A stretch of 64,000 nt of DNA from Planctomycetota bacterium (lineage in GTDB: Bacteria > Planctomycetota > PLA2), in assembly GCA_027297745.1 (NCBI GenBank), contig JAPUHK010000024.1, forward strand, positions 994-64,993, in the 5' to 3' direction. The notes under the pieces were generated by a model. The model was not told where the DNA came from. It searched no databases and saw only the letters and a program-made list of their open reading frames with translations. The translations under genes and the position numbers were made by a program. This document shows, one piece after another, positions 15,237-64,000 of this stretch (position 1 is its first letter; each line of letters starts with the position of its first letter).

Positions 15237-16700
<1,464 letters not shown>

Positions 16701-16702
16701 GC

Positions 16703-17140: not shown

Positions 17141-17154
17141 GGGGCCCTCTCAAA

Positions 17155-23813: not shown

Positions 23814-23815
23814 TC

Positions 23816-24283: not shown

Positions 24284-24287
24284 TCCG

Positions 24288-25087: not shown

Positions 25088-25097
25088 CGCCGAAGTC

Positions 25098-27056: not shown

Positions 27057-27073
27057 TTCTGCTTTAGGAAACG

Positions 27074-28624
27074 ATGAACGAACTCACGTATGCGATCTTC
27101 CTCCCGCTGGTCGGGATGCTGGCGGTGCTCTTGACCAACAAGGAGAAGCCGCAGCAGGCGCGCGTGGTCGGCTTCCTGTTCACGCTCGTCACCTTCGGGC
27201 TGTGCACCCTGGTGGCGCTGCAGTGCTTCAACGCGGGCGACGTGGACGGCTACCACTACCGCGTCCAGGCAGTGTGGATCGACCTCGGCGGCAGCTTCCA
27301 GGTGCACTACTCGATCGGCGTGGACGGCCTCAGCGGCATGCTGATCTTCCTGACGGGGCTGCTGGGCGTGTGCGCCGCGCTGGCGTCGTGGAACATCAAG
27401 CAGGGCACGCGCGGCTACTGGGCCATGTTCCTGCTCTTGCACACGGGCGTGATCGGCACCTTCGCCTCGCTGGACCTGTTCCTGTTCTACGTCTTCTGGG
27501 AGATCGTGCTCCTGCCGATGTACTTCCTGATCGGCGTGTGGGGCGGCCCGCGGCGCAGGTACGCGGCGATCAAGTTCTTCCTGTACACGCTGTTCGGCTC
27601 GGTCTTCCTGCTGGCCGGCATCCTGGTCACCTACTTCGCGCTGACGGCCACGGGGTCCGGCTTCGCCGGCAACCCATTCAGCATTCCAGAGATCACGGCC
27701 TACGCGAGGGTGACGGACAACATCATGGCGCCCTTCGGCGAGAGCGCGCACACGATCGCGACGCTCGTGTTCTGGGGCCTGTTCGTCGCCTTCGCGATCA
27801 AGGTGCCAGTCTTCCCGTTCCACACGTGGTTGCCGGACGCCCACGTCGAGGCGCCGACGCCCATCTCCGTGATCCTGGCGGGCATCCTGCTGAAGCTCGG
27901 CGCGTACGGCATGCTGCGCATCGGGTTCCCGTTCTTCCCAAAGATCTTGCACGAGATGGCCTTCTATCTCGGCGTGCTGGGAATGATCAACATCATCTAC
28001 GGCGCGCTGGTGGCCATGGCGCAGACCGACTTCAAGCGGCTCGTGGCCTACTCGTCGGTCTCGCACATGGGCTTCGTCATCCTCGGCTTCGCCGCGATGA
28101 CGCCGGAATCGCTGAACGGCGCGATCCTGATGATGTTCAACCACGGCACGATCAGCGGCCTGTTGTTCCTGGTGGTGGGCGTCGTGTACGACCGCGCGCA
28201 TCACCGCGACCTGGGACGTTTCGGCGGGCTGATGTGGAACATGCCGATCTACGCCGCAATCAGCGGCGTGGCAATCTTCGCCTCGCTCGGCCTGCCCGGC
28301 TTGAGCGGTTTCATCGGCGAGATACTGACCCTCCTCGGGTCCTTCAAGACGACCTTCTACGAGCACGCCGGCCTGATCACGGTCGTGTGCACGATCGGCC
28401 TGGTGTTGACCGCGGCCTACTACCTGCGGGCGCTGCAGCGCGTCTTTTTGGGCGAGACCAACCCTGAGTGCGAGTCGTTCCCCGACGTCGACACGCGCGA
28501 GATCGGCTCGATGGTGCCGCTCCTGGTGCCGACGATCGTCTTCGGCATCTATCCCGCGCCGCTGATCGACCTGATCCAGGGTCCCGTGAGTAGCCTCGTG
28601 CTGATGGTGAAGAGTCTGGGCTGA
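27074..28624 (+). CDS. nuoM: NADH-quinone oxidoreductase subunit M
   Basis: FVFWEIVLLPMYFLIGVWGG...FPFHTWLPDAHVEAPTPISVILAGILLKLG. Confidence 0.95.
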   Translation: MNELTYAIFLPLVGMLAVLLTNKEKPQQARVVGFLFTLVTFGLCTLVALQCFNAGDVDGYHYRVQAVWIDLGGSFQVHYSIGVDGLSGMLIFLTGLLGVCAALASWNIKQGTRGYWAMFLLLHTGVIGTFASLDLFLFYVFWEIVLLPMYFLIGVWGGPRRRYAAIKFFLYTLFGSVFLLAGILVTYFALTATGSGFAGNPFSIPEITAYARVTDNIMAPFGESAHTIATLVFWGLFVAFAIKVPVFPFHTWLPDAHVEAPTPISVILAGILLKLGAYGMLRIGFPFFPKILHEMAFYLGVLGMINIIYGALVAMAQTDFKRLVAYSSVSHMGFVILGFAAMTPESLNGAILMMFNHGTISGLLFLVVGVVYDRAHHRDLGRFGGLMWNMPIYAAISGVAIFASLGLPGLSGFIGEILTLLGSFKTTFYEHAGLITVVCTIGLVLTAAYYLRALQRVFLGETNPECESFPDVDTREIGSMVPLLVPTIVFGIYPAPLIDLIQGPVSSLVLMVKSLG

Positions 28625-30183
28625 TGCTGCTGGGTGCGGAAGCCTTTATCCCCGACGTCTCGGCGTTGTTCAGCCACTTCGGCGCGGAAGTCGTGCTGGC
28701 GTTGGGGATCCCCTTGCTCCTCGTGGCGGACCTGTTCACCCGCCGCAACAAGGAGTCGGTCACCGGCGCTCTCTCGCTGGTGCTGTTGACCGTCGCCCTC
28801 GTGCTCGGGCTCTGGCAGGACTCCTCCAGCAGCGTCGGTCTGACGAGCCTCTTGCGCGCGGACGGGCTGGCCAAGGGCTTCCGCGTGATCGCGCTGGCCA
28901 GCGGCGTGATCACCGCGGTGGCAGCACTGCGCGGCGGTGACGCGGTGCGCCACCGGACGGAGTTCTTCGTGCTCCTGATGGGGGCCGTACTCGGCGCCTG
29001 CCTCACGGCGGCCGCGAACGAGATGGCCATGCTGTACCTCGCGATCGAGACGCTGTCGATCGCCGGGTACCTGCTGGCCGGCTTCAAGCGGCGCGATCCG
29101 CAGGGCTCGGAGGCCGCGCTGAAGTACATCATCTTCGGCGCCATCTCCTCCGGCATGATGCTGTACGGCCTGACCTTGCTGTACGGCTTCGGCGGGACGA
29201 GCCTCTTGACCACGCCGCCGGGCGCCCCTGAAGGCACCGTTTCGCTGCAGTCCTATCTGCAAGAGAACGCCTCGGCGCTCGCCATGAAGCCCGCCTTCAT
29301 CGCCGCCGTGGTGCTGGTGTTCGCGGGCCTGGCCTACAAGATCGCCGCGGCGCCGTTCCATTTCTGGTGCCCCGACGTCTACCAGGGCGCGCCCACCTCG
29401 GTGGCGGGTTTCCTGGCCGTTGCCGGAAAGGGCGCCGGGCTGGCCGCCTTCATCCGCATCGTGCAGGCCGTCACCGGCGGCGCCGGCGACCACATCACGG
29501 ACCTCTTGGCCAGGCACAACGACGTGATCCGCACGGTGCTGATCGGCATGTCGATCGCGACCATGACGATCGGGAACGTAGCCGCGCTGCGCCAGCGCAA
29601 CGCCAAGCGGATTCTGGCCTACAGCGCCATCGCGCACGCGGGCTACATCCTGATGGGTCTCACGGTCACCAGCCGCGCGGGCGCGACGGCCATGCTCTTC
29701 TACATGGGCGTCTACGTGTTCATGACGTTCGGCGCCTTCTTCATGGTGGCGCTCGTGGAGCGCGAAAAGGGTAGCTGCGACCTGTCGGCCTTCGAGGGGC
29801 TCGGGTTCCGTGCGCCCTTCTTCGCCGTGTCCTTCGCGATCGTGCTGATCAGCCTGACGGGCCTGCCGCCGACCGGCGGCTTTTGGGCCAAGGTGTTCCT
29901 GTTCGAGGGCGTGTTCAGCTACGGCGGCGCGCACTCCTCGAGCCTGTACCTGTGGTTCGGCGTGATCGGCCTGCTCAACGGGGTCATCTCGCTGGTCTAC
30001 TACGCCCGCTTCCTGAAGGCCATGTACCTGGCCGACCCGGAGCACAACACCGGCTCCGGGCTGGAGCTCGGCCTGGCGGACAAGAGCATGGTGTTCGCCA
30101 TGACGCTGCCGCAGCTGGTGCTCGGCGTGATGTTCGCTGGGCTCTACGAGACGGCGCAGCTTCTGGTCGTGGATCTCTTCTGA
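28624..30183 (+). CDS. nuoN: NADH-quinone oxidoreductase subunit N
   Basis: YLAIETLSIAGYLL...AAAPFHFWCPDVYQGAPTSVAGFLAV. Confidence 0.95.
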   Translation: MLLGAEAFIPDVSALFSHFGAEVVLALGIPLLLVADLFTRRNKESVTGALSLVLLTVALVLGLWQDSSSSVGLTSLLRADGLAKGFRVIALASGVITAVAALRGGDAVRHRTEFFVLLMGAVLGACLTAAANEMAMLYLAIETLSIAGYLLAGFKRRDPQGSEAALKYIIFGAISSGMMLYGLTLLYGFGGTSLLTTPPGAPEGTVSLQSYLQENASALAMKPAFIAAVVLVFAGLAYKIAAAPFHFWCPDVYQGAPTSVAGFLAVAGKGAGLAAFIRIVQAVTGGAGDHITDLLARHNDVIRTVLIGMSIATMTIGNVAALRQRNAKRILAYSAIAHAGYILMGLTVTSRAGATAMLFYMGVYVFMTFGAFFMVALVEREKGSCDLSAFEGLGFRAPFFAVSFAIVLISLTGLPPTGGFWAKVFLFEGVFSYGGAHSSSLYLWFGVIGLLNGVISLVYYARFLKAMYLADPEHNTGSGLELGLADKSMVFAMTLPQLVLGVMFAGLYETAQLLVVDLF

Positions 30184-51401: not shown

Positions 51402-52745
51402 TCAGGGCTGCCGCGGAGCGCGCATCGCGCGCCCGTGCTGGTGCAGCGTCAGGGCCACGACCCTGCCGTCCTGCTTGTGGAAGGTGATGCGCGCGTCGAC
51501 CACTTTGTAGAAGAAGCTCGTCTCCGACTCGGGAAAGACCTGCAGCTTGGCCTGGCCTGTGGCCTGCACCATGAGCTTGTCGCCCTCGCGGGTGACCGTC
51601 AGCACAAACTGCGGCGTGAGCGCGTACGCGCCCGCGTAGGCGTCGTAGATCTTCGGGTCGACCTGCGCCTCCCGGGGCGGCTGCTCTCCACGCAGCAGCT
51701 TCATGATCCGCCGGCCGACGCTGTCGATCACGCCGTCGGCCGTGTTGCTGAGAATGACGAGAGCGTGCCCGCGCTGCGTGTCCACCGCTGCGAAGGAGTG
51801 GTAGCCGCCGGTCTGGCCGTTGTGCCTACGGTAGCCGAGCGGGTCGATGTGCCAGCCGAGCCCGAGCTTTTGCGCCTGGGGCGCGCCGGGCTTGTGGTGT
51901 ACCTTGCGCGCCAGCGCCAGGGCCGCGTGCATGCCGCCGTCCTTCTCTGCCAGATTCGCCTGCAGGAACGCCAGCATGTCGCGCACGGAGGAGCGAATGC
52001 CGCCCGCTCCGGCCAGCGTGGGGATGTCCCAGGTGGAGGACGGCACCCCGTTGGCCCGGTAGGGGGGTGCGAGCCGCTTGCGCATGTCCTGCGTGTACAC
52101 GATGCGCGTGCTCGGCATACCGAGCGGCTCCGTGATGCGCTCGACGAGCAGCGCCTCGTAGCTCTTGCCCGCCTTGCGCGCCAGCGCATGCCCTAGCAGG
52201 CCTGCGCCGAGGTTGCTATACGCGCTCTTCAGCCCTGGAGCGCGCTTCAAGGTGCAGCCGGACAAGAAGGCGTACATCAGCGCCGGCGTGTAGTCCGCGT
52301 AGGGATTGTTGGGATCCTTCGGGGCGAAGTTGCTCGGCATGCGCGGCAAGGCCGAGGTGTGCGTGGAGAGATCGACCAACGTGATCTTGCGCCCCCCGTG
52401 CGCCGGCACCTGCACCGTGTCGGGCAAGAGCTGCTCGAGCGGCTGGTCGAGGCGGACGCTGCCGTCCTGCACGAGCGCCGCCAACAGCACGCCCGTAAAG
52501 ACCTTGCTGATCGATCCGATCTCGTAGACGGTGTCCTGATCGGGCACGTCTTTCTCGCCCACTGTGACCTTGCCGTACCCGCGCACCCACGGCTGCTTGT
52601 CGCGCGCCTCGATCACGCCGATCGTCATCCCCACGACGCTGCCGCTCCCGATTACCGGCTGCGCGAGGGCGTCGACCTCCCGCGCGAGGTCTTTGGCGGC
52701 CGCGCACGGCAGGGCCACGAGCAAGATGAGCAGAACGCCTCTCAT
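51402..52745 (-). CDS. Serine hydrolase of the class C beta-lactamase / PBP4* family
   Basis: Signal peptide MRGVLLILLVALPCAAA. Motifs SISK (SxxK) and YSN are present, with a C-terminal extra domain. Confidence 0.85.
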   Translation of the reverse strand: MRGVLLILLVALPCAAAKDLAREVDALAQPVIGSGSVVGMTIGVIEARDKQPWVRGYGKVTVGEKDVPDQDTVYEIGSISKVFTGVLLAALVQDGSVRLDQPLEQLLPDTVQVPAHGGRKITLVDLSTHTSALPRMPSNFAPKDPNNPYADYTPALMYAFLSGCTLKRAPGLKSAYSNLGAGLLGHALARKAGKSYEALLVERITEPLGMPSTRIVYTQDMRKRLAPPYRANGVPSSTWDIPTLAGAGGIRSSVRDMLAFLQANLAEKDGGMHAALALARKVHHKPGAPQAQKLGLGWHIDPLGYRRHNGQTGGYHSFAAVDTQRGHALVILSNTADGVIDSVGRRIMKLLRGEQPPREAQVDPKIYDAYAGAYALTPQFVLTVTREGDKLMVQATGQAKLQVFPESETSFFYKVVDARITFHKQDGRVVALTLHQHGRAMRAPRQP

Positions 52746-52990
52746 GACCACCCTCCAAGGGTAATCGACGGCGCGCCCACGCACGACGCTGCCGTCTGCG
52801 CACGCGCGCAAGCGCGTAGGCGCACGGTGGCGATTGGACGAATGCGTGCAGTCGTTCCAACCACGCCGCCCGTGCGCCGGATCCCCGTTGGAGCGCTCGA
52901 ACCTTATCGTGCACCGCGAGCGGCACCCGTGTTGCGTATGCGGAGGCGGGCTAAGGGACGAGCGGAGCCTCAACCGAGAGAGGAGAGCTC

Positions 52991-53557
52991 ATGCGTAAGG
53001 GAACGATCGCCCTGTGTCTACTCGTCTGTGCTGCAGGCACCTACGCGGCAGTCGAGTGGACCGTCGGCAACGGAGACGCAGGCGGGGCCAATCTGCATCA
53101 GATGGGCAAGTCCGGCATCAAGGCTCGCATCCGTATCGTGGATCACGGTGACCCGGCCGCGGGTCTCGAGGTGACGGGCACGGCCACGGGCCTCGACCCG
53201 GGCCAAGCCTATTTCTCGCTGTTTTACGACAGCAGGGCCAAGCCCTCCGGTCCTTCGGCCTGCGCGCCCAACGTGCCGGGCGCCCTGACCCCGCCTCAGA
53301 TGTTCATCTCCTTCTGGCAGGTGGACGGCAACGGCAACGGCACGCTGCACGTGACCAAGACCGGCCCCTCCTACGCCGCTCTGGGCGCCCTGGGGGGGCC
53401 ATGTCGATCCGTCTGGGCGCCACCGGCGCGCTGCAGGCCTGCGGTAAGGTCACTCCCGCCGACGAGTCCGCGCGCACCTGCCGCCTCCAGCGTTGACCCA
53501 CGATCCCAACGAAAAGCGGGGCGCCCGTTTCAGGGCGCCCCGCGCTGTTGGCTGTGA
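52991..53557 (+). CDS. Secreted hypothetical protein, frameshifted at a G7 tract (probable true stop at 53494-53496)
   Basis: MRKGTIALCLLVCAAGTYA signal peptide. After GGGGGGG (53392-53398) the annotated frame turns Arg/Pro-rich and reads through a terminator hairpin. The other frame gives AMSIRLGATGALQACGKVTPADESARTCRLQR* with high GC3. Confidence 0.65.
   Translation: MRKGTIALCLLVCAAGTYAAVEWTVGNGDAGGANLHQMGKSGIKARIRIVDHGDPAAGLEVTGTATGLDPGQAYFSLFYDSRAKPSGPSACAPNVPGALTPPQMFISFWQVDGNGNGTLHVTKTGPSYAALGALGGPCRSVWAPPARCRPAVRSLPPTSPRAPAASSVDPRSQRKAGRPFQGAPRCWL
53516..53543 (-). terminator. Rho-independent terminator after the 11-heme cytochrome gene
   Basis: GCGGGGCGCCC-n6-GGGCGCCCCGC. On the minus strand it is followed by TTTTCGTTGGG. 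Confidence 0.65.
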
Positions 53558-53566
53558 GTCCGTGGA

Positions 53567-56395
53567 CTAGGGTCCGCTGACGTAGTTGCCGGCGTTGCCC
53601 CCGATGTTGCCGTTGGCGTCCAGCCAGGAGTCCAGGTGGATTCCGATGGCCGGGTCGGGGTTGGTCAGCCTGTCGATCAGCGTGCCCGTCAGCGGTCCCG
53701 CCATGGTCGGGTTGGGCGTGCCCGTGCGCAAGCTCGGGCCCGTCCCCGGCATGAGCGGGTGGTTGCTGGAGCTCGTCGGAGTTCCGTCCGCGAGCACGAT
53801 GCTGTCCAGGTTGTAAGCGATGCGGGTCATGAACGTGGCCGGGTCGAAGGCCGTCGCCGGCGCGACCGTCACGTTCTGGATGCCCGGATCGGCGAAGATG
53901 CCGTACCGGTTCGGGTTCTGGTCCAGCGGGTTGATAGCGCCGCCGTTCCCGTCGAACAGGAACAGCCCCGTACCCAGGCCGGCCACCATGTGCACCCAGA
54001 AGGGTGAGTTCATCTGGTTGCCGGAGTTCTGGCCGAAGTGCTGCCTCAGCTCCGTGAAGTCCAGTTGATCGTAGCTTCCGCTCGCCATGGCGGAACGGAA
54101 GGCCACGTACTCGGTCCCGTACTGCTGCATACCCGCCTCGGTGATGTGGCACGCGACGCAGTAGCGCGGGCCCTCCATGGTGGAGGTGACGCGGCCGCGG
54201 ATCGAGTGGGCCATCATCGCGTTGTGACCGAGCGAGGGCGTTTGGTTGGGGTCGCTCCCCTGCGCCTTGCGGTCGGAGAACGTGAAGATGCTGGACAGCT
54301 GGTTGTTGCGGTCCTCCCACTGGAAGAACATCTTCGTGTTCGAGCTGACCTGCGTGATCTCGTTGTGCGGGCTGATGCCCAGCGCCATGAACACGGGCGA
54401 CTGGTACACGAACTCGGCCTCGTCCTCCTCGAAGACGATGCGCTCGCCCGTGATGTTGCTGAAGTCATTCGAGTACTCGCCCTTCAGGTGACAGCCCATG
54501 CACGTGTTCGTCCACGAAGCGTGGCAGGACGCGCAGTCCAGGTCGTCCGTGTGGCTGAAGTTGCTCGGGACCGCGTTGTTCGCCTGGATCGGACCTATGC
54601 CGGTCGTGCCCAGGCCGTCGTCACGGCCCATCGCATAGGAGGCCTTGTCGCTGTACAGGGGCGCCCCGCTGAACGGGTGCGTCCGGCCCGTGTTCACGGT
54701 GACGTCCAGCGTCTGCGGGACGAAGTGACGCGCGCCCGTGAGACGGCTGTACAGGTAGAAGTGGCCGTCGCTCTCCAGCACGACGTGCGCCAGGGTGTTC
54801 CCCTCGCCGTCCACCGCCAGCTCCTGGGTGGTGTTGTCGTAGGCCGTGCCTTGAGCCGTCTGGGCATAGGCCGCGACGCCGCCGTGGCAGCTCTCGCAAC
54901 GGATCCCCACGGCGTGCTCCATGCGGCTCACGATCTTGCCGCCGCTCGGGGAGGTCACGTCGCCGCCGTGCAGGTCGAAGCTGCCGTGGCAGTCGATGCA
55001 GCCCATGCCGGCCTCGTAGTGCACGTCGGGCGGGGTGTCGTCGCGGCCGTCGTCGTCGTAGTCCTCCTCGAGGAGGTACTGGTTGCGGTTGCGCCCGTTG
55101 AACTCGCGGTTCCCCAACCGGATCAGGACGCCGTTCTGGTCGTAGATCGGCAGGTTGGGGTCGAACAGGCGCGTGTCGCCGGAGGTCGTCCGGTAACTTC
55201 CCGGCTGCGACGGGTACTGGAAGCCGCGCCGCACGTCCTGGTTCTGGTCGAGGCGGATGCCCCAGTACTGCATGACCGTGCGGTTCGAGCCCTGGTGGCA
55301 GCCGGCGCAGGCGTAGTCGTCGATGCCCTGGACGAACTCGCCGCTGGACAACGTCTTGGCCACGGTGCGGATCAGGTGGCGGGCGACGTGCGGCAGCTCG
55401 GGCTCGTCGATGTCGTCCGGATCGTACGGCTCCATGCGGTTGAGGTTCGGATCGTTGCTGGTGGAGCGCCCGCTCAGGCTGTGGCGCATGTGGCACGCCG
55501 AGCAACCCGAGCCGCGGTAGTCGCCGTAGCGGTTGTTCGCGCCGGCGCTGCCGAGGTGGCAGTCTCCGCAGGTGTAGGCGATCTGCTCGTGATAGAGCTT
55601 CGCCAGCGGGGAGTCCGTGATCGCCTGGCCCGTCAGCGGATCGATGTCGTCATCGAGCTCGGCGGCGTCGAAATCCGGGTTGTTGCGGATGTCGTTCGGG
55701 CCGTTGTTGAAGCGCCGGCTGTAGACCGGGAACTCCATCAGGTTTTGCACCGAACCGAAGGTCGTCGGGTCGAAGCTCTGGTCCGTGACGGCGCGAATGC
55801 CCAGGTCGGCGGCCGTGTCCTCGTAGCCCGTGTACCCCATCTGGTTGTCCACGCCGGCCGCGAACATCGCGCCGGAGAAGATGCCCATCTCGGTGGCGAT
55901 CGGGCTCTGGGACACGATCTGCGCGTGGTTCGCGTGGCACTGGCCGCAGCTGCGGTTCTGCGTGACCACGCGGATGTCGGCCGGGCTGACGAACTGCAGC
56001 CAGTCCAGCGCGCTGTAGGTCTGCCCGTTCGCGGCCGTGTAGTCCGGGAACTTGTCCGGACCGGCCAGGGTCAGCCGGTTGAAGTAGGCGTGGTCGTTGT
56101 TGATCCAGTTCTGCCGGTCGCCGATCTCGGGCGGCGCCGGGACGTGGCTCGAGGCCCTGTCCGTCCCGTTCGGGTTTCCGCCGTGGCAGGTGGTGCACAG
56201 CAGGTTGCTGGCGCCCGTGAAGGGGTGTGGGTTCTCGAGGCCCGGGCCCCCGTAGTTGTTGTCCACGGAGCCGTTGTGGCAGGTCATGCACGACTGGGCC
56301 GACGCTGTGATCGCGCGGCCGCTGGAGTCGACGCAGCCCGTCACGACGAACGCCAGTAGGAAGATGACTGAGAGGAGACCTCTGTGATGAGTCAT
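53567..56395 (-). CDS. Large multiheme c-type cytochrome lipoprotein (11 CXXCH)
   Basis: MTHHRGLLSVIFLLAFVVTGC carries a lipobox. The motifs are CMTCH, CTTCH, CGQCH, CGDCH, CSACH, CAGCH, CIDCH, CESCH, CASCH, CMGCH and CVACH. Confidence 0.9.
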   Translation of the reverse strand: MTHHRGLLSVIFLLAFVVTGCVDSSGRAITASAQSCMTCHNGSVDNNYGGPGLENPHPFTGASNLLCTTCHGGNPNGTDRASSHVPAPPEIGDRQNWINNDHAYFNRLTLAGPDKFPDYTAANGQTYSALDWLQFVSPADIRVVTQNRSCGQCHANHAQIVSQSPIATEMGIFSGAMFAAGVDNQMGYTGYEDTAADLGIRAVTDQSFDPTTFGSVQNLMEFPVYSRRFNNGPNDIRNNPDFDAAELDDDIDPLTGQAITDSPLAKLYHEQIAYTCGDCHLGSAGANNRYGDYRGSGCSACHMRHSLSGRSTSNDPNLNRMEPYDPDDIDEPELPHVARHLIRTVAKTLSSGEFVQGIDDYACAGCHQGSNRTVMQYWGIRLDQNQDVRRGFQYPSQPGSYRTTSGDTRLFDPNLPIYDQNGVLIRLGNREFNGRNRNQYLLEEDYDDDGRDDTPPDVHYEAGMGCIDCHGSFDLHGGDVTSPSGGKIVSRMEHAVGIRCESCHGGVAAYAQTAQGTAYDNTTQELAVDGEGNTLAHVVLESDGHFYLYSRLTGARHFVPQTLDVTVNTGRTHPFSGAPLYSDKASYAMGRDDGLGTTGIGPIQANNAVPSNFSHTDDLDCASCHASWTNTCMGCHLKGEYSNDFSNITGERIVFEEDEAEFVYQSPVFMALGISPHNEITQVSSNTKMFFQWEDRNNQLSSIFTFSDRKAQGSDPNQTPSLGHNAMMAHSIRGRVTSTMEGPRYCVACHITEAGMQQYGTEYVAFRSAMASGSYDQLDFTELRQHFGQNSGNQMNSPFWVHMVAGLGTGLFLFDGNGGAINPLDQNPNRYGIFADPGIQNVTVAPATAFDPATFMTRIAYNLDSIVLADGTPTSSSNHPLMPGTGPSLRTGTPNPTMAGPLTGTLIDRLTNPDPAIGIHLDSWLDANGNIGGNAGNYVSGP

Positions 56396-56419
56396 TTCTG
56401 ATCTCACTTTGCCCGACCC

Positions 56420-56440
56420 CTCCGGCGGCGACCGCCGGAG
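56420..56440 (-). promoter_or_regulatory. GC hairpin in the leader of the 11-heme cytochrome gene
   Basis: CTCCGGCGG-cga-CCGCCGGAG, a perfect 9-bp stem, lies about 25 nt upstream of ATG 56395. Confidence 0.4.
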
Positions 56441-56630
56441 TCCGAGCGAGAGGGCGTGAGAGCCGGCCCCACGAGGGAGAGACCAACACGCGGTAGTCCG
56501 ATGCTAGGAACGGGTATCACTTGGAGGGGGGCCTGAGAGACGCAACTTGAGACTTCAGCCGGAGCGTCTCGTTGTGAGGCGGCTCGATCGGAAACGCCGG
56601 CGGTCTGCCCCACAAACCGTGCGGGGCCGC

Positions 56631-57278
56631 TCAATTGACGGCCGGCACCCATGCCGTGGGCACGTGGCACTCGTGGCAGTTGTCGACGAAGCCCAGCGGG
56701 ATGTGGGGGGGATTGGTGGTGTTGTTCCGGTCGTCCACGTGGCACGTGACGCACTCGGTGTCCACGGGGATGAAGTTGCCGACCCGCGCGCCCGGGTGGC
56801 AGCGGTAGCAGGCCACCAACGTGTGGGCGCCGAGCAGCGGGAAGCGCGTCCGGTCGTGGAGCGCGATCTGGCCCACGGGGCGCCAGGTCTGCTCGGTGTG
56901 GCAGCGGGTGCAGTCCTTGTCCAGGTCGCCGTAGTGGTAGTCCTCGTGGCAGCCCGTGCAGCCCTGCGAGTGGAAGATCGCCACAGGCCCGCGGTCGTTG
57001 TGGCAACGCAGACATTGCGCCTGCTCATGAGCCCCGTTGAGAGCGAAGCCGGTGTTGGCCAGGTGGTTGAACTTGAAGTCGCTCTTGAGCTTGTTCCAGT
57101 CACCGCCCACGTGGCACAGCTGACAGTCGGCCGGGAACGAGTCGTGCGGCAGGACCGGTCCGAAACCCGCCCACCAACGGTGCTGCTTGCCGGTCAGCGG
57201 GCGCGCGGCGGCGCAGGCCAACAGGATCGCGCTCAGGAGCGCGATCGCGATCGGGCGTCTACGGAATCGGAATCGCAT
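56631..57278 (-). CDS. Periplasmic multiheme c-type cytochrome (7 CXXCH)
   Basis: MRFRFRRRPIAIALLSAILLACAAA is a signal peptide and LLAC could be a lipobox. The motifs are CQLCH, CLRCH, CTGCH, CTRCH, CYRCH, CVTCH and CHECH. Confidence 0.9.
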   Translation of the reverse strand: MRFRFRRRPIAIALLSAILLACAAARPLTGKQHRWWAGFGPVLPHDSFPADCQLCHVGGDWNKLKSDFKFNHLANTGFALNGAHEQAQCLRCHNDRGPVAIFHSQGCTGCHEDYHYGDLDKDCTRCHTEQTWRPVGQIALHDRTRFPLLGAHTLVACYRCHPGARVGNFIPVDTECVTCHVDDRNNTTNPPHIPLGFVDNCHECHVPTAWVPAVN

Positions 57279-57290
57279 GGGTATCAACTC

Positions 57291-59081
57291 TCAAAAGCCC
57301 TTCTGCCAGGTGAACCCAGCGGACCACGAGATCTCCTTGTCGTAGGCGACGACCTCCCCGAACACGTAGACGTCCCAGTTTCCGACGCGATAGACGCTCA
57401 AGCTGCCGCGCAGACGTTGCTGCACCAGGTCGTCCCGGTTCGCGTTCAGGCCGTGGATGTGGTGGAAGGCAAGCTCGTACATCAGGTCCCACCTGCCCTT
57501 GGCCGTCGTGCGGCCGTAGAGGAGACGCACGCCCGCCACGCTCTCGTACTGGCCGATGTTGCCGTAGCCGACGAGGTCCAGGTGCGCCTGGCGCCGCAGC
57601 GTCTGTTCGACGCCGATGTCGAACGCGCCGCCGCTGCCGTCCTCGTCGACCCAGCCGCTGACGTGCCCGTGCAGGCGCCTGTCGGCGCCCAGCATCTTCC
57701 AGAGGTTCAGCGCCAGCCGGTCGAACTCGTTGTTCGCCAGGTCGGCGGCGAAGACGATGGGACGGTATTCGCCCTCCCGCAAGAGCTCTGCGAACGCCCA
57801 GTGCTGATAGAGGAACTGGATGCCGCCCCGGGCGAAGGTGCGGTTCAGGGAGGCGATGGCCTGCGTGATCTCTATGCCTGAGCCCTTGATCGGGTCGCTG
57901 GCGGAGTAGAAGTCGACCCAGATCGTGGCGTGGAAGGCCCAGCCGTCCACCGGCAGAACGTGCATGCGGGCCACCAGGAGGTCGCGGTCCGGGTTGCCGT
58001 TGTTCCAGGTCTTCTGGAAGCCGCCGGCGATCAGGAAACGCTCGTTCGGGTCCTGCACCCACTCGTACCAGCCCGCCAGCTGGAAGTCCTCGAAGGTGTC
58101 GAAGTCGTCGTTCAGCTCCGGCATGTAGCCCATGCTCACGCCGTAGCGGTGCCCGTTGTCGCCCCTATGCGCCCACTGCAGGCCGTCCAGCACGCCGAAC
58201 TCGGGCATGCCGTGCTGCAGGAAGCGGCCGACCTCCCAGCGGTTGCTGTTGAAGCGATTTCCGCCGCGGAAATAGGAGAGGCGGCGCAGCAGGAAGTCCC
58301 CCGTGAGGTCGCTGTTGTACTTGTAGTTCGCCAGGTAGGCCGCCTCCGCGTTGAGGCGGAAGCCGCCGCCCTTGCCGAAGGGATTCGAGTAGGTCAGGTC
58401 CGTGCCGACTCGCAAGTAGGAGCTGGTGAAGTCGCTGTCGGGGTTGTCCGTCACCGCGGCGCTCACATAGGTGAAGCCGGCGAGCCCCTTCCGGCGGTTC
58501 TTGGGGCGCACGGCTCCGGTCTCGGCCAGCAGCGACTTGCTCGTGGACCACTCCTCGTCCTTGTTCTTCCAGGGCGGGTGTTCCGGAGTCTCGCCCTCGG
58601 TGCCCGCGGCAGCAGCGCCTCCGGCTGCCGCTGCACCTGCGGCGACTCCGGCGCCGTCTTTGTCCTTGTCTTCCGGCTCGCCTTCGCCTTCCGGCTTGGT
58701 GCCTTCCCCTTCAGGCTGTCCGCCTTCGGGTTCCGGTTGCAGTTCGGGCTCCGGCTCAGGATCGGGTTGCGTGAAGCGCGAAGCCGGGATCAGCACTTCG
58801 CCGCGCGTGCCCGCTTCGGGAACGAACTTGGCGTCGCGCATCTCGACCACCGCGCTGCGCGCGCGGACCGAGAGCACGGTTCCGGAATAGGTGCCGCCCT
58901 GGCGCGGGAAGAAGGACACGACGTCGCCGATGGCGAGGCCGTCCCGCTTGCCGCGGTCGATGGTGACCGAGGCTCCGGGTCCCGCGGAGCTCACGCGCAG
59001 GGACACACGTTCCAGCTCTTCCTGCGCCCATGCGGACACGCAGGTCCACAGGACCATGGAGAGCAGAATTACAAGCCTCAC
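57291..59081 (-). CDS. Putative outer-membrane beta-barrel protein with periplasmic N-domain and acidic linker
   Basis: The GTG start overlaps the upstream stop (GTGA). The signal peptide is (M)RLVILLSMVLWTCVSAWA. A PE-rich linker (PDPEPEPELQPEPEGGQPEGEG) follows. About 400 aa show alternating amphipathic strands, ending ...SWSAGFTWQKGF with a terminal Phe. Confidence 0.6.
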   Translation of the reverse strand: MRLVILLSMVLWTCVSAWAQEELERVSLRVSSAGPGASVTIDRGKRDGLAIGDVVSFFPRQGGTYSGTVLSVRARSAVVEMRDAKFVPEAGTRGEVLIPASRFTQPDPEPEPELQPEPEGGQPEGEGTKPEGEGEPEDKDKDGAGVAAGAAAAGGAAAAGTEGETPEHPPWKNKDEEWSTSKSLLAETGAVRPKNRRKGLAGFTYVSAAVTDNPDSDFTSSYLRVGTDLTYSNPFGKGGGFRLNAEAAYLANYKYNSDLTGDFLLRRLSYFRGGNRFNSNRWEVGRFLQHGMPEFGVLDGLQWAHRGDNGHRYGVSMGYMPELNDDFDTFEDFQLAGWYEWVQDPNERFLIAGGFQKTWNNGNPDRDLLVARMHVLPVDGWAFHATIWVDFYSASDPIKGSGIEITQAIASLNRTFARGGIQFLYQHWAFAELLREGEYRPIVFAADLANNEFDRLALNLWKMLGADRRLHGHVSGWVDEDGSGGAFDIGVEQTLRRQAHLDLVGYGNIGQYESVAGVRLLYGRTTAKGRWDLMYELAFHHIHGLNANRDDLVQQRLRGSLSVYRVGNWDVYVFGEVVAYDKEISWSAGFTWQKGF

Positions 59082-61156
59082 CGCTTTTCTTCCTTCGCGC
59101 CCCGGCGGAACGGGTTCTCGTCCTCGCCGTGGCAATCGGCGCACCTGCCCCCCATCGGGCGATAGCGGATGAAGTCTTTACCGTTCTCGCGAACTGGTAA
59201 ATGGCAGGCGGAGCAGGCCAGGGGGGTGTGGGCCTCCCCGAGCTGGAAGCTCGAGTCCAGGTCGTGGCGGAAGCTCAGGTCCGTGAAGGCCGCAGCGGCA
59301 GGCCTGTGGCAGCTCCGGCAGTCGGTCAGCCCCTTCACCTCGAACTGCCCGGCATGGGAATCCTGGTGGCAATCCGAGCAGTGGCCGCCCTTGGCGCGGG
59401 CCCAGGTGCGCCCGGCCTCGTCCGGCTCCCGCAGGGGGGTGTGGCAGTCGGCGCAGTCGACTTTCTTGTGCTGGCCGACCAGGGCGAAGCCGGTCCAGCG
59501 CTTGTGGTCGAAGCCGTTCGGGAAGGTCCGGAACGAGCTCTCGCCGTGGCAGCGCTCGCAGCCGGTCTTGCCCTTGAAGGTGCGCGGCATGCCGGGCTTG
59601 TCGAAGTCGTTCTTGTGCGGATCGATGTGGCACGTGTCGCACCCCTCGTACACGCCGAAGCGATCCGAGACGCGGCCGAACGTGCGGCCGAAGCGGTCGG
59701 GTTCCGGGGTGCGCGGGTGGCAGGCCTCGCACTCCTCCTGCGCGTGGGCCGCGACTAGCGGGAACCCCGTCCACGGGCCGTGGTCGAAGGCCTCGGGCGG
59801 GATGTCCCGGAAGTCCGTGGCCAGGTGGCAGTCGGCGCAGCGGCCGTACGTGCTCGCCGATGTCTCCGGCGCGAACTGCTCGAAGAACCCCTCGTGCGGG
59901 TCCGGATGGCATCCGGCGCACTTGACGGGAGTCCCGTGGAACACGCGCGGGCTGCCCTCGATGGGCGCCGCCTCGTGGCACGCGTTGCAGTCGGTCTCGA
60001 TATGGCTGCCGATCAAAGGCAGGGACGTCTCCGCGTGCATCTCGACGCTGAAGATGTGCGGCTCGAAGTAGAGCGTCCCGTGGCAGGCGACGCACGCGCC
60101 GCTCTTGAACGAACCCTCGCCGAACTGGCCGCCGTGGGGATCCTCGTGGCACGCGGCGCAGTCGTCGGCCGCGCGGGCCGGGTAGCGGGCCTTGAAGTCC
60201 TCGTGGTTGAGATCGTGGCAGTCCGCGCAGCCCACTTCGTGATGCGGATCGGTGAGCGAGAACCCGGAGCTTTCGTGCTGCTCCACGGTCATCTCCCCGA
60301 GCTGCCTGTCGTTCCAGGTCGTGTGCTCCGCGCGATGGCACACGTCACAGGCGGCGCCGGTGGGGCGGGAGACCTGCAACGCGACGCCGTCGACGAAACC
60401 CTCGGCGTGCGAGTTCGCGTGGCAGTCCACGCACATGCGCGCGGCCGGGGCGCGATTCTCGCCTAGCGCCTCGAGCGTGTAGGGCTCGTTCGCGTGGCAG
60501 GAGCGGCACTCCATGTTGCTGTGGCCGCCGATCAGCTGCAGGTAGTCCTCGTGGCCGCGCGACTCCAGCTCCGCCCAGGCGCGTTGCCCGTGGCACTGGA
60601 CGCAGCTCAGCGCCGCGTAGCGGCCCTCGTGCACATCCCCGTGGCACGTCGTGCACTCCTGGTCGAGCCCGATGTAGCGCGTCGCGCCCTCCGGCAGGAT
60701 CTCGATGTTCACCTGCAGGTGGCACTCGTTGCAGGCCAGCTCGATGTGCCGGCCGTCCATGGGGAAGCGGATCATGTTGTGGTCGAACTCCGCCGGGTCG
60801 GGCACGCCCGCGGCCGCGAAGCTCTGCCGGTTGACGATGGCGAAGCCCGCGCCGTGGTGCTCGCTGTGGCACAACGCGCACAGCATGGCCTTGTTCCCAA
60901 TCACGCCGTGGAGTCCGTTTCCGGCGGCGATCTGCGCGTCGATCGTCTTGTGGCACTCGAGACACGCATCCGACATGCTCAGGAACAATCCGCCGTGGCA
61001 CGCGGAGCAGCTCTCGCCGCGGTTCAGGTCGCCCACGCGCGCGTGGACGGCCGTGACCTCTCCCGGTGACTTGCGCCCGAGGTGGCCGATCACGACGTAG
61101 AGCACCGCCGCAGCCGAGGCCAGGCCGATCCAGAGGCCGGGACGTCCCAGCTTCAA
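59078..61156 (-). CDS. Membrane-anchored multiheme c-type cytochrome (23 CXXCH)
   Basis: N-terminal anchor GLWIGLASAAAVLYVVIGHL. I counted 23 CXXCH motifs in 692 aa. A recurring module is F-x-H...F-x-L-x-G-x-H-x4-5-CXXCH. The putative TTG start overlaps the upstream stop (TTGA). Confidence 0.85.
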   Translation of the reverse strand: MKLGRPGLWIGLASAAAVLYVVIGHLGRKSPGEVTAVHARVGDLNRGESCSACHGGLFLSMSDACLECHKTIDAQIAAGNGLHGVIGNKAMLCALCHSEHHGAGFAIVNRQSFAAAGVPDPAEFDHNMIRFPMDGRHIELACNECHLQVNIEILPEGATRYIGLDQECTTCHGDVHEGRYAALSCVQCHGQRAWAELESRGHEDYLQLIGGHSNMECRSCHANEPYTLEALGENRAPAARMCVDCHANSHAEGFVDGVALQVSRPTGAACDVCHRAEHTTWNDRQLGEMTVEQHESSGFSLTDPHHEVGCADCHDLNHEDFKARYPARAADDCAACHEDPHGGQFGEGSFKSGACVACHGTLYFEPHIFSVEMHAETSLPLIGSHIETDCNACHEAAPIEGSPRVFHGTPVKCAGCHPDPHEGFFEQFAPETSASTYGRCADCHLATDFRDIPPEAFDHGPWTGFPLVAAHAQEECEACHPRTPEPDRFGRTFGRVSDRFGVYEGCDTCHIDPHKNDFDKPGMPRTFKGKTGCERCHGESSFRTFPNGFDHKRWTGFALVGQHKKVDCADCHTPLREPDEAGRTWARAKGGHCSDCHQDSHAGQFEVKGLTDCRSCHRPAAAAFTDLSFRHDLDSSFQLGEAHTPLACSACHLPVRENGKDFIRYRPMGGRCADCHGEDENPFRRGAKEEKR

Positions 61157-63378
61157 CTTTTGCCCCCGAAGAAGAAGGGGTAGTACGCGAGCGCGTAGAC
61201 GATGTGGATTACCACCAGCAGCACCATCAGCGCCGCCATCCAGCGGTGCAACCAGCGCCAGGTGCCGAGCACCGCGCGCAGGTCCTCATAGTGCGCCGCC
61301 ATGAGCGCCGTGCGGTGTGCCTTGCGCGCGAGCTGCATCGTTTCCTTGATCTGCTCCTCGTCGATGCCCTCTTCACGCCCTTCGTCCTCCAGGCGTGTGA
61401 GCAAGCGCTTCAAGCCGCCCCGGCCGGTCAGCATGGACAGCACGCGCCCAAGGAACCCCGAGCCCCATTGCTTCTTCTCGATCAGCTCATCCACCGCGCT
61501 GCGCGCCCGTTCGCGGTACTCCCGTTGGCCCTGGTCCCACTCCTCGGACATGCGGCCGAGGCGGGCCTTGACCTCCTGCAGCTCCAGCTCGCGTCCGTTC
61601 GCGGCGCGCGGCACGCAGGCGTAGAAGTAGCGTCCGATGGCGCCGGTGACCAACAGCACCGCCAGCGCCCAAAAGGCGTGCCCCGCGACGGTGTTGCCGG
61701 GCGCCATGGCGCCGTGCAGCGTCGCCAGCAAGAGCGCCAGGATGCCCGTGGCGACGTGGCTCGTCATCCAGATCTGCAGGGAGCCGACGTTGAGCCGGAA
61801 GCGCGGCGAACGCCGCACCAGATAAAGGAGGTTCACGAGGATCAGCGCGGTCGCGCCGATGCCCAGCCACAGGCCGAGGCCGAGGCCCGGGCGCAGCAGC
61901 GCATGCTTCGGGTGCGCGGCGCGCGCGGAGGCCGGCAGGCCGTAGTAGTCCGCGTGCACCATGACCCAGACCAACGCGGCCAGCGAGAGTGTGAAGCCGA
62001 TGCCGAGCGCGTGGACCAGGCCCGTGCCCTGCTCGCCGAGCTGGGGCGCCGCCTTGCGCAGCGACGGGTCGAAGGACACGCCCGAGCGTTCGAGCAGCTC
62101 CAGCGGCGCGCTGCCGCCCGCCATCACGAACACCTCGTCGTTCGGCAACGTGCGCGTCGCCGTGCCGTAGCCGCTCTGCACCGTGAGCTCGACCGAGTCC
62201 GGACGGATCGCCCGCACTTCGCTGTTGAACAGGACCTCGAGCTTGCCCTCGCGCAGGCATTCGTCCAGGCGCTCCTGGTTCTTGGGTCGAATGCGGAAGA
62301 AGCTCTCCTTGCGGTACGAGAGCGTCACCTGGTTCCCCGGTTGCTCCGCGAGACCCATGGCCGCCTCGACCGCGCTGTCGCCGCCGCCGACGACCAACGT
62401 GCGCCGGTGCTGGTACGAGTGGGCGTCCAGCAGGCTGTAGGCCACCTTGGACAGGTCTTCGCCTTCCACGCCGAGCTTGCGCGGCGAGCCGCGGCGGCCC
62501 ACCGCCAGACAGACGTTGCGCGCCGTGTAACTGCCGGTCTTGGTGCGCACGACGTAATTGCCGTCGTCGTCCCGGCTAAGACCCACGAACGTCTCCTGGG
62601 AGCGGATCGGCAGCTGCTGCTCCTCCGCGATGTGCGCCCACAGCTCGACCAGCTCTTCCTTCGTGTAACTGGACTTCAGGCGGCCGTAGAGCGGCAGGTC
62701 GACCGGCTGGCTCATGATCAGCTTGCGCCGCGGGTACTTCGCGACCGTGCCGCCGGGCCCGCTCTCCTGGTCCAGCGTCACGAACTTCAGGCCGTGGCGC
62801 TTGGCCTCGAGCGAACACGCCAGGCCGGCGGGGCCGGCGCCGACCACGCACAGGTCCAGCGTGCCGTTGGGGTTGGGCTCGTGCTCCAGGCGCCGCGCGA
62901 CTTCGCCCGCTACGGCCGTTCCGTGGTCGACGGCGGTCTTGATCAGCGAGTGCGCGGTCACCTCACCCGCGAGGAACAGCCCGGGCGAGCCCACGGCCTC
63001 GAGCTGTTCGGTCAGGACCGGGATGTCCCGGCGCTCGGCGATGTCGCTCAGCGTGACCTTGATCGCGCCGACGGGGCACTCGCGCTCACACAGGGCATGG
63101 CCGACGCAGCGCGCGCCGTGCACGACCATGGCCTGGCCGTGCACGAGCTTCAGCACCTGGTCCTCGGGACAGACGTCGACGCACGTGCCGCAGCCCAGGC
63201 AGCGGGACAGATCGACGACGGGTTGGGCGAGCTGGGCCTTGTCACTCCCCTGACGGACCGCCTGCTCACGGTCGCCCAGCGCGCGGCGCATGCGCCGGAG
63301 CTCCAGGCGCCGCGCGATCGCCACCATGAGGGATAGGCCTAGGGCGACTACGACTCCAATAAGGAGGGGCCAACTCAT
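61153..63378 (-). CDS. Inner-membrane fusion protein: TM anchor + ferredoxin-type FeS domain + FAD/NAD(P)-binding oxidoreductase + C-terminal 5-TM domain with two H-x13-H pairs
   Basis: GGAG Shine-Dalgarno. FeS motifs C60LGCGTCVDVCP and C91VGHALCERECP. Dinucleotide folds VVGAGPAGLA and VVGGGDSAVEAA. His541-x13-His555 and His711-x13-His725 lie in hydrophobic helices. Confidence 0.85.
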   Translation of the reverse strand: MSWPLLIGVVVALGLSLMVAIARRLELRRMRRALGDREQAVRQGSDKAQLAQPVVDLSRCLGCGTCVDVCPEDQVLKLVHGQAMVVHGARCVGHALCERECPVGAIKVTLSDIAERRDIPVLTEQLEAVGSPGLFLAGEVTAHSLIKTAVDHGTAVAGEVARRLEHEPNPNGTLDLCVVGAGPAGLACSLEAKRHGLKFVTLDQESGPGGTVAKYPRRKLIMSQPVDLPLYGRLKSSYTKEELVELWAHIAEEQQLPIRSQETFVGLSRDDDGNYVVRTKTGSYTARNVCLAVGRRGSPRKLGVEGEDLSKVAYSLLDAHSYQHRRTLVVGGGDSAVEAAMGLAEQPGNQVTLSYRKESFFRIRPKNQERLDECLREGKLEVLFNSEVRAIRPDSVELTVQSGYGTATRTLPNDEVFVMAGGSAPLELLERSGVSFDPSLRKAAPQLGEQGTGLVHALGIGFTLSLAALVWVMVHADYYGLPASARAAHPKHALLRPGLGLGLWLGIGATALILVNLLYLVRRSPRFRLNVGSLQIWMTSHVATGILALLLATLHGAMAPGNTVAGHAFWALAVLLVTGAIGRYFYACVPRAANGRELELQEVKARLGRMSEEWDQGQREYRERARSAVDELIEKKQWGSGFLGRVLSMLTGRGGLKRLLTRLEDEGREEGIDEEQIKETMQLARKAHRTALMAAHYEDLRAVLGTWRWLHRWMAALMVLLVVIHIVYALAYYPFFFGGKS

Positions 63379-63435
63379 GCCTTCACTCCGGCCTCAGTGC
63401 TATGCCCTCCTGCCCGACCTCCCAGACCCGCCCGT

Positions 63436-64000
63436 CTACTTGCCGCCGGCGCTTCGCGCCCTGAGCTCCCGGTCCCGGGAGCTGCCGCTGACGTTCATGG
63501 ACGTGGCCTTGCGTCGCGTCTCGCCCTGGCTGAAGGCCGGGGCAGGCGGGCCCTCGACGGGCTGGGCGGCGCTCACGGGCAGGGCGGCCGACTCGACATA
63601 CGCGCGAGCAGCCTTCAGGCAGGCGTCGAACTCGCCGTCGAGATCAGAGACCCGCTTGGCCAGCGCGCGCGCTTCGCCCTGGATCTCGGACACGGCCACG
63701 GGGTTGAGGTCGTTGCCCAGGAAGAGCGCGTGGTCGCGCAGGCTGTTGTTGACCGCATCATAGGACGCCAGGGCGGGCTCCGCGGCCGCGACGATGGCGT
63801 GGTAACGCTCGCGAGTCTCCACCAAGCGGTTGCGGCTGCGCTGGCGCAGCTCCACGCTGCTGATGTCCTTGAGGTCATCGGCCCACTGATCGAAGACCGG
63901 ATCGCTCGAGTCCTTCATGTTCTCGATGCTGTCCCGAAGCTTTTCGGCCTGCTCCTCGGAGTTCTCGATGGCCGTCATGAACTCCCCGTAGGCCGTAACC
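63436..64000 (-). CDS. DUF2959-like protein (5' end probably beyond the window)
   Basis: WADDLKDISSVELRQRSRNRLVETRERYHAIV...NNSLRDHALFLGNDLNPVAVSEIQGE. The frame stays open upstream of the listed Met to the window edge. Confidence 0.6.
   Translation of the reverse strand, partial: VTAYGEFMTAIENSEEQAEKLRDSIENMKDSSDPVFDQWADDLKDISSVELRQRSRNRLVETRERYHAIVAAAEPALASYDAVNNSLRDHALFLGNDLNPVAVSEIQGEARALAKRVSDLDGEFDACLKAARAYVESAALPVSAAQPVEGPPAPAFSQGETRRKATSMNVSGSSRDRELRARSAGGK

Follow-up and report, generated by a model that had tools for sequence, protein, structure and literature searches.

To our knowledge, quinol dehydrogenases are the starting point of all routes by which diderm bacteria have been established experimentally to move electrons out of the cell (Mtr, Geobacter Pcc). 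CymA is the quinol dehydrogenase of Mtr, and Geobacter relies on separate enzymes of this kind (ImcH, CbcL, CbcBA) together with small periplasmic triheme carriers. The porin-cytochrome cluster PCC3 is known from several Proteobacteria, among them Sideroxydans and Leptothrix (He et al. 2017, PMC5566968; Hoover et al. 2023, PMC9900912). It consists of a 21-27-heme periplasmic cytochrome, a β-barrel porin, a 10-35-heme outer cytochrome and an inner-membrane protein of ~300 aa with five transmembrane (TM) helices, which carries WX3HX13H on TM3 and TM5 and SGXXG on TM4 (PMC5566968). For the PCC3 and PCC4 protein of the inner membrane, He et al. 2017 assumed a quinone-active cytochrome b (PMC5566968). 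Here we describe a five-gene locus on the minus strand (53567-63378) of a 64,000-nt stretch of contig JAPUHK010000024.1 from a Planctomycetota bacterium, referred to as the window in the rest of the paper. The five genes, named A to E in their order of transcription, very probably form one trans-envelope electron-transfer system, and its closest described counterpart is PCC3 rather than OmbB-OmaB-OmcB of Geobacter. What appears to be new, judging from the encoded domains, is a NOX-like, NAD(P)H-linked entry module on a porin-cytochrome conduit, itself a kind already known. All coordinates are positions within the window.

The likeness to PCC3 is one of architecture and motifs. As in the PCC3 inner-membrane protein, residues 450-741 of A contain five TM helices with the same His motifs, TGAIG standing for SGXXG (Thr replaces Ser). 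The gene next to A, B, codes for a 23-heme cytochrome, a barrel is present (C), and E, with 11 hemes and a conserved lipobox, would match the 10-35-heme outer cytochrome, its surface exposure being a prediction. Unlike in PCC3, the membrane protein here makes up the C-terminal part of a 741-aa protein in which it is fused to ferredoxin and NAD(P)H flavoprotein domains, there is an extra 7-heme lipoprotein (D), and the hosts are Planctomycetota. No flavoprotein is described in the PCC3 literature examined or in the supplements of He et al., which also omit Planctomycetes. A search with 39 standalone membrane proteins distantly homologous to that of A returned 65 matches, none with a proteobacterial name, and did not establish a direct link to reference PCC3; in the searches whose matches bore organism names, these names were Planctomycetota, Myxococcales and Thermoanaerobaculia only.

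The initial annotation of this locus had held that described systems start with a quinol dehydrogenase, which overlooks the PCC3/PCC4 inner-membrane protein with the same motifs, and had likened the last three genes to the ombB-omaB-omcB conduits of Geobacter. The gene order (barrel, small multiheme, large lipoprotein multiheme) and the presumed electron transfer across the outer membrane are indeed shared with these conduits, but the parts list of PCC3 fits better. Membership in Geobacter Pcc was rejected, as D and E carry 7 and 11 hemes, not 8 and 12, and D has a lipobox; none of the Geobacter-specific NCBIfam models reached its cut-off. Unlike Geobacter Pcc, the cluster also codes for an inner-membrane module of its own and for a 23-heme cytochrome proposed to span the periplasm. 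Membership in MtrCAB was likewise rejected, as C has no MtrB_PioB match and the score of B with TIGR03508 (DmsE/MtrA decaheme) is 60.9 bits, far from the cut-off of 192.2. The predicted number of strands in C is 22, compared to 26 in MtrB of Shewanella (MtrCAB, 6R2Q).

All five co-directional open reading frames (ORFs) listed in the initial annotation were recovered on the minus strand at the same coordinates. Recounting of the CXXCH motifs gave the same figures, 23 in B, 7 in D and 11 in E, hence 41 c-type hemes by motif, and the variants CX3CH, CX4CH and CXXCK were absent from these three proteins. The stop codon of A overlaps the TTG start codon of B (TTGA), and that of B overlaps the GTG start codon of C (GTGA); 12 nt separate C from D and 235 nt separate D from E. 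The operon ends just past E with an intrinsic-terminator-like hairpin (53516-53543, minus strand), whose 11-bp stem is made of GC pairs throughout and precedes TTTT. These junctions and the hairpin, all as originally reported, were counted as support for the operon structure. Positions 52000-64000 gave no Rfam match at E≤0.1, and a search of the cluster region for sigma-70-like promoters was also negative.

Gene A (61153-63378) codes for a 741-aa protein composed of a membrane anchor, a ferredoxin domain, an FAD/NAD(P)H domain and a putative di-heme b membrane domain, which we propose to be the point of electron entry at the inner membrane. Its earlier description as an NAD(P)/FAD fold, an iron-sulfur (FeS) domain and a diheme-like membrane domain is borne out by Pfam domains, TM helices and invariant His residues. 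Hydropathy revealed an N-terminal TM anchor and then an Arg-rich stretch within residues 1-25 (63304-63378). Sequence reading found no twin-arginine before this helix, and the Arg-rich stretch, under the positive-inside rule, would place the following domains in the cytoplasm. Residues 53-110 (63049-63222) gave several Fer4-family Pfam matches and contain seven Cys (C60, C63, C66, C70; C91, C97, C101) and one His (His80) that are invariant in 121 sequences. The second ferredoxin motif has three Cys only (C91-x5-C97-x3-C101-P), giving seven Cys instead of eight, and one FeS cluster of A may be of the 3Fe-4S type or His-ligated.

Residues 175-440 of A (62059-62856) form a two-Rossmann FAD/NAD(P)H domain that matches Pyr_redox_3 (E 3.4e-45, 155 bits for a cut-off of 30), the fold class of thioredoxin reductase (TrxR) and YpdA. 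The motifs GAGPAG (180-185) and GGGDSA (331-336) and residues R356 and R362 are invariant or nearly so in 121 members, and the two Arg that come after GGGDSA are similar to the motif with which TrxR, going by its established biochemistry, binds NADPH. By sequence, the best solved relatives of the domain are YpdA/Bdr (7a7b, E 1.9e-33), TrxR and TrxR-type ferredoxin-NADP reductases. A is nevertheless not a disulfide reductase of the TrxR or YpdA type, since residues 175-440 lack a CxxC redox disulfide (the only invariant Cys there are C188 and C290) and the scores fall far under the equivalog cut-offs for YpdA (TIGR04018, 150 bits against 339.9) and TrxR (TIGR01292, 71.5 against 343).

In the 5-TM domain of A (residues 450-741, 61156-62031), the third helix bears W537x3H541x13H555, the fourth TGAIGRY and the fifth W707x3H711x13H725. 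None of the four His varies in 121 homologs of A or in the 39 distant standalone homologs; in the latter, the invariant columns are W/H/H, GxxGR and W/H/H, plus only Y35, G58 and R78. Pfam matches of this domain to Ferric_reduct and DUF4405 are weak (19.8 bits against a cut-off of 28 for Ferric_reduct, PF01794), and the 39 standalone homologs gave sub-threshold matches to DUF4405 (30/39), Ferric_reduct (15/39, E≤0.01) and cytochrome b561 (13/39). DUF4405 proteins were shown experimentally to bind heme b (PMC11334425). We propose that A likewise holds two bis-His-ligated b hemes stacked across the membrane. Since the positive-inside rule orients both His-bearing helices from cytoplasm to periplasm, H541 and H711 would ligate the inner heme and H555 and H725 the outer one. 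An AlphaFold2 model of full-length A, computed from a 30-sequence alignment, reached a predicted local distance difference test score (pLDDT) of 63.8 and a predicted template modelling score (pTM) of 0.40; it was too poor to be used for a fold search or for heme geometry.

Gene B (59078-61156) codes for a 692-aa c-type cytochrome with a conserved N-terminal TM anchor; the cytochrome would act as a wire spanning the periplasm. All 46 of its Cys sit in its 23 CXXCH motifs, and Cytochrome_C7 matched eight stretches of the protein (E 1.3e-30). Gene D (56631-57278) codes for a 215-aa, 7-heme cytochrome with a lipobox (LLAC, C22), and gene E (53567-56395) for a 942-aa, 11-heme cytochrome with another (VTGC, C21), proposed to be the surface-exposed terminal reductase. 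C22 and C21 are the only Cys of D and E outside CXXCH motifs. The lipobox is kept in 55/63 orthologs of D and in 45/49 orthologs of E; D, first described as a small periplasmic multiheme protein, is thus a lipoprotein and not a free periplasmic cytochrome. The density of hemes is about one per 30 residues in B and D and one per 86 residues in E. Searched against the PDB by sequence, B and E gave no match at E≤0.01.

Gene C (57291-59081) codes for a 596-aa protein with a signal peptide, a β domain (residues 23-100), an acidic linker (104-180), a barrel (199-596) and a terminal Phe. No Pfam or NCBIfam model matched C. Modelling from a 50-sequence alignment (pLDDT 82.8) confidently predicts a 22-strand outer-membrane β-barrel, in agreement with the initial annotation. 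The region before the barrel (residues 23-180, 58542-59015) comprises a conserved small β domain with the motif VDRGxRDGLxxGD and then a disordered acidic linker of ~75 residues rich in Pro, Glu and Gly; one C homolog gave a Pfam MreC match. This region may have a periplasmic docking role.

Comparison with other genomes revealed that this arrangement is extensively conserved. At E≤1e-10, 7859 of 8000 scored candidates are relatives of A. At least 120 homologs are full-length or near full-length, with 60-95% identity, and those bearing an organism name are all from Planctomycetota. A scan of one genome per species yielded at least 178 relatives of A, from which 80 loci were kept; these come from metagenome-assembled genomes (MAGs) of Planctomycetota or unclassified bacteria and from the complete genome of a cultured strain, Saltatorellus ferox Poly30 (L041). 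We searched 81 loci by tblastn with the window proteins, counting for each gene only the loci long enough to show it. B follows A in 71/71 loci (modal number of hemes, 23), C in 66/67 and D in 61/61 (modal number, 7), while E lies within 10 kb of A in 37/48 (modal number, 11). The proposed gene order and the co-conservation of A with the cytochromes therefore hold, and synteny on this scale excludes a chance arrangement. No other ORF with two or more CXXCH was found within 10 kb of A in the 81 loci, so that a multiheme quinol dehydrogenase of the CymA/NapC, ImcH or CbcL type is not part of the cluster. A tblastn search of a plasmid collection with the membrane domain of A returned nothing.

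Two of these loci deserve mention for their B and D positions. At 12250-14316 of L001, a 6.5-Mb contig, the deposited calls show two reverse-strand genes where the B ortholog sits. As tblastn recovers an intact ortholog there (48% identity over residues 1-683), the apparent lack of B is an annotation error that hides a 23-heme cytochrome. In L066, which represents one sub-lineage, the position of D is occupied by a 482-aa, 18-heme protein (16387-17835), and there is no E-like gene within the next 5 kb.

The modules of A also occur as separate genes. A profile of its membrane domain retrieved 2215 relatives at E≤0.001 from 1.84 billion representative proteins. The best 150 of these include 64 standalone proteins with lengths of 250-340 aa, 27 proteins in the range 341-480 aa and 22 that exceed 700 aa, most of the last also carrying FeS and GxGxxG motifs; almost all of the 150 have two WX3HX13H motifs. 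Ten genes for standalone or variant membrane proteins were inspected in their contigs, and each clustered with a gene for a cytoplasmic flavo-FeS protein. In nine loci the partner is a separate Fer4+Pyr_redox_3 protein homologous to the N-terminal half of A (hmmsearch E 1e-105 to 1e-154 in the seven loci scored), and the N-terminal anchor is kept in three of the four split-form flavoproteins examined. Named carriers of the split form are Planctomycetota and Myxococcales. In the tenth locus, from a Thermoanaerobaculia MAG, the partner is an FNR-like protein (FAD_binding_6 + NAD_binding_1 + Fer2) unrelated to the TrxR-like one.

In the re-analysed clusters, the gene directly after that for the membrane protein codes for a cytochrome with 20-26 hemes, or with 50 hemes in the Thermoanaerobaculia locus. 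Most of these clusters contain a second cytochrome and five contain a C-like barrel. Since repeats inflate summed E-values between multiheme cytochromes, these comparisons relied on best-domain values and on a reversed-sequence control, which gave 0 matches. By this measure, the D orthologs of split systems, which have 13-16 hemes, match at E 1e-64 to 1e-69. One split cluster adjoins ccm cytochrome-maturation genes. Fused and split forms can share a genome, as MAG OFTM341 (JAJFFH01; L045, L089) has both a fused A-B-C-D system and a paralogous split system made of a 420-aa flavoprotein, a 282-aa membrane protein, 26-heme and 16-heme cytochromes and a barrel-sized protein.

A metagenome scan for the Thermoanaerobaculia-type membrane protein, which defines a third subfamily, yielded more than 532 relatives, of which 80 loci were kept. 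An FNR-like gene lies upstream in all 39 loci with room for it, and the TrxR-like partner in none of them (0/39). The cytochrome after the membrane protein has 10-65 hemes in the loci kept, and in two long loci the giant cytochrome is followed by a barrel-sized protein ending in Phe. A similar metagenome scan with the Myxococcales-type alignment gave no confirmed relative. On a soil metagenome contig (L104, 2013-13763), a unit made of an FNR-like protein, a di-heme membrane protein and a 23-heme cytochrome is joined to two NHL-repeat proteins, a tetraheme cytochrome, a SurA-like peptidyl-prolyl isomerase (PPIase), a barrel-sized protein of 599 aa and a cytochrome with 11 hemes. The Uet complex of Candidatus Tenderia is reported to have this composition, with undecaheme and NHL-repeat proteins, a PPIase, and cytochromes of the triheme and tetraheme kind, and the likeness suggests that outer-membrane modules are exchanged in modular fashion. 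For the window, membership in Uet was rejected, as its cluster has no NHL or PPIase gene and an E protein that is not similar to the 11-heme protein of L104. Finally, the 838-aa protein P0246 combines a di-heme membrane domain (residues 138-403) and six CXXCH motifs in one polypeptide, a direct fusion of b- to c-type hemes that follows the same logic as CbcL.

Fused in some lineages, conserved side by side in others and elsewhere replaced by a non-orthologous partner, the modules of A all indicate that an NAD(P)H-flavin-FeS module, a di-heme b protein and a long multiheme cytochrome c constitute one functional unit. The presence of two unrelated NAD(P)H-FAD-FeS modules at the same position further argues for NAD(P)H as the cytoplasmic partner. 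The initial annotation had put forward a non-quinol entry, an idea that gains support from these fused, split and replaced flavo-FeS partners. Gene content, the invariant cofactor motifs, the barrel fold, synteny and the pattern of fusion, splitting and replacement are shown here; function, occupancy of the cofactor sites, topology, contacts between subunits, direction, acceptor and quinone independence are inferred. Like NOX, FRE and their relatives (SpNOX, MsrQ, DUF4405), A would feed two stacked bis-His b hemes from a cytoplasmic NAD(P)H-flavin module, with His pairs 13 residues apart on two helices and electrons leaving on the far side. Unlike in NOX, the dehydrogenase is TrxR/YpdA-like and N-terminal, with an intervening FeS domain, whereas NOX has a C-terminal FNR-like domain. 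A was rejected as a member of NOX/FRE proper, which have a C-terminal FAD_binding_8/NAD_binding_6 domain in place of the N-terminal Fer4 + Pyr_redox_3 of A. The proposed acceptor is also different, a 23-heme cytochrome c instead of the O2, Fe(III) or MsrP of NOX, FRE and MsrQ. The third subfamily pairs its membrane protein with an FNR-like protein, as NOX does, but this protein is encoded by a separate gene and also has a 2Fe-2S domain.

Two other kinds of system invite comparison. In Hmc and Tmc of sulfate reducers, a membrane cytochrome b connects periplasmic multiheme cytochromes c with an FeS protein in the cytoplasm, and quinones are not an obligatory intermediate. They differ from the present system by their HdrD-like FeS and NrfD-like subunits, by the lack of a flavoprotein and of an outer-membrane module, and by an inward flow towards sulfite reduction. 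For two-subunit systems resembling Nqr/Rnf, a transfer of electrons from NAD(P)H to the extracytosolic side has been proposed (PMC11334425); neither these systems nor the DUF4405 proteins involve multiheme cytochromes or an A-type fusion. Our literature searches found no description of an NAD(P)H-fed FeS-flavoprotein/di-heme b entry to a multiheme conduit, and no characterised family to which the cluster could belong with another function.

In the mechanism that we propose, cytoplasmic NAD(P)H, probably NADPH, would reduce the FAD of the TrxR-like domain of A, and electrons would pass through its FeS domain to the heme b on the cytoplasmic side (H541/H711) and then to the heme b on the periplasmic side (H555/H725). 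The membrane-anchored 23-heme protein B, probably long enough to cross the periplasm, would carry them to the 7-heme lipoprotein D located within or at the barrel C. D and C would hand them to the 11-heme surface lipoprotein E and on to an external acceptor; Fe(III), Mn(IV) and humic substances are candidates, and so perhaps is O2. The ten hemes of MtrA span ~8 nm, and at this spacing a 23-heme chain could reach ~18-20 nm, about the width of the periplasm. Export of electrons from the negative cytoplasm would consume membrane potential, as in NOX, so that the entry step would conserve no energy; this favours redox balancing, reductive iron acquisition or the production of reactive oxygen species (ROS) over proton-pumping respiration.

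That the system is an outward, quinone-independent conduit from NAD(P)H to the cell surface with a NOX-like flavocytochrome at its entry is, in our judgment, somewhat probable, and several points weigh against it. The five-gene system is described here from its genes, the heme geometry and the contact between FeS domain and heme in A are predictions from sequence, the model of A being poor, and the Pfam matches of the membrane domain lie below curated cut-offs. Of 48 genomes, 11 show no E in the immediate vicinity of the other genes, some of them because insertions have displaced it or because it falls at the locus edge. A quinol dehydrogenase may be encoded elsewhere in the genome, beyond the 10 kb examined. 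The organism has complex I, hence a quinone pool, and di-heme b proteins often react with quinones. Saltatorellus ferox, the one cultured carrier, is an aerobe, and it is not obvious how anaerobic metal respiration would serve it. The function of PCC3 is itself unverified in the literature (PMC5566968, PMC9900912). A related protein of the ferric-reductase-domain family, MsrQ, reportedly carries ubiquinone as a cofactor (PMC12525009), and A may involve a quinone as well. These last observations on quinones, together with the quinone-active cytochrome b proposed by He et al. 2017 for the same motif set (PMC5566968) and the weak matches of 13/39 standalone homologs to cytochrome b561/Ni_hydr_CYTB, a quinone-reacting family, would suit a quinone-dependent conduit, in which A is either an NAD(P)H:quinone reductase or a quinol:cytochrome c oxidoreductase with the flavoprotein as a second, alternative or regulatory input. 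A plain quinol oxidase, however, needs no cytoplasmic NAD(P)H-flavo-FeS partner, yet one is always there, be it fused, adjacent or a non-homologous substitute. A multiheme cytochrome c always comes directly after, P0246 is even fused to c-type hemes, and the His residues are spaced and placed on the helices as in ferric-reductase-domain proteins such as NOX and FRE. These enzymes use NAD(P)H, not quinol. We consider dependence on quinones unlikely.

TrxR-type ferredoxin-NADP reductases are reversible, and PCC3 was discovered in Fe(II) oxidisers and proposed for electron uptake (PMC5566968, PMC9900912), which could speak for an inward flow, already raised in the initial annotation, in which Fe(II), a cathode or a partner cell feeds the conduit and A reduces NAD(P)+ for biosynthesis. 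On thermodynamic grounds, though, transfer from donors such as Fe(II) into the negative cytoplasm and up to -320 mV would be doubly uphill, and no coupling device is encoded. The carriers are Planctomycetota of many oxic and organic-rich habitats, and no autotrophy genes were seen in the window. Enzymes with NOX/FRE architecture run outward, and we regard inward flow as very improbable. A variant of the outward conduit, differing in acceptor only, would deliver something other than reduced minerals: superoxide formed at the hemes of E, Fe(III)-chelate reduction for iron uptake, or reducing power for periplasmic or outer-membrane enzymes. The entry logic shared with NOX, FRE and MsrQ is compatible with such products, as are the presence of the cluster in the cultured, aerobic strain L041, an entry step that would not conserve energy, and the 60-72% identity of A across many habitats, which suggests a housekeeping role. 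Against this, 41 hemes and a dedicated barrel represent a large outlay for iron uptake, and no siderophore, iron-transport or superoxide dismutase gene adjoins the cluster in the window. This variant seems to us quite unlikely, if less so than a reversal of flow.

Directly upstream of A lies a gene matching DUF2959 (63436-63978, minus strand; Pfam E 6.3e-22), possibly truncated by the ORF call near the end of the window. According to tblastn, the majority of the 81 loci have a DUF2959 homolog at this position, in agreement with the deposited annotation of L001 and L002; the gene may belong to the cluster as an accessory sixth component, or be a regulator. On the other side, a 188-aa ORF (52991-53557, plus strand) converges on the end of E, its 3′ end overlapping the region of the terminator hairpin. 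Its product has a signal-peptide-like N-terminus and no Pfam match, and the ORF may not be a real gene. The remainder of the window is ordinary chromosome with 66-71% G+C. It contains a suf FeS-assembly operon (11916-18525, minus strand), with two class-V aminotransferases, two SufB/D-type genes and SufC, and complex I genes (22713-30183, plus strand), with NuoH and three antiporter-like subunits, the latter indicating that the organism has a quinone-linked chain.

How electrons enter the newly catalogued porin-cytochrome clusters, such as PCC3 in iron oxidisers and those of peat Acidobacteriota and Verrucomicrobiota, is not addressed in the literature examined, and a recent survey of such clusters in peat bacteria has nothing on inner-membrane entry. 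The cluster described here and its split and replaced relatives suggest an answer, namely a NOX-like flavocytochrome drawing directly on NAD(P)H. Thousands of proteins now annotated as "thioredoxin reductase", as "NAD(P)-binding domain-containing protein" or as "hypothetical" fall into this annotation gap. The evidence seems to us evenly balanced on the broader proposition that the FeS-flavoprotein and di-heme b protein represent a widespread, unrecognised class of NOX-like NAD(P)H:multiheme-cytochrome c oxidoreductases, forming the inner-membrane entry of PCC3-type and related conduits in Planctomycetota, Myxococcota and Acidobacteriota at least. Were this so, the class would pair in modular fashion with outer-membrane sets of the C/D/E type, with giant cytochromes and small barrels or with a Uet-like set, NAD(P)H electrons would be exported to the surface while bypassing the quinone pool, and the PCC3 inner-membrane protein of iron oxidisers would need reinterpretation. 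Saltatorellus ferox Poly30, which is available in culture and completely sequenced, carries the system and makes it open to experiment. If entry is indeed directly from NAD(P)H, the energetics of these conduits would change, in that membrane potential would assist export with no energy conserved at entry, and their likely physiology would shift to redox balancing, iron acquisition or ROS production.

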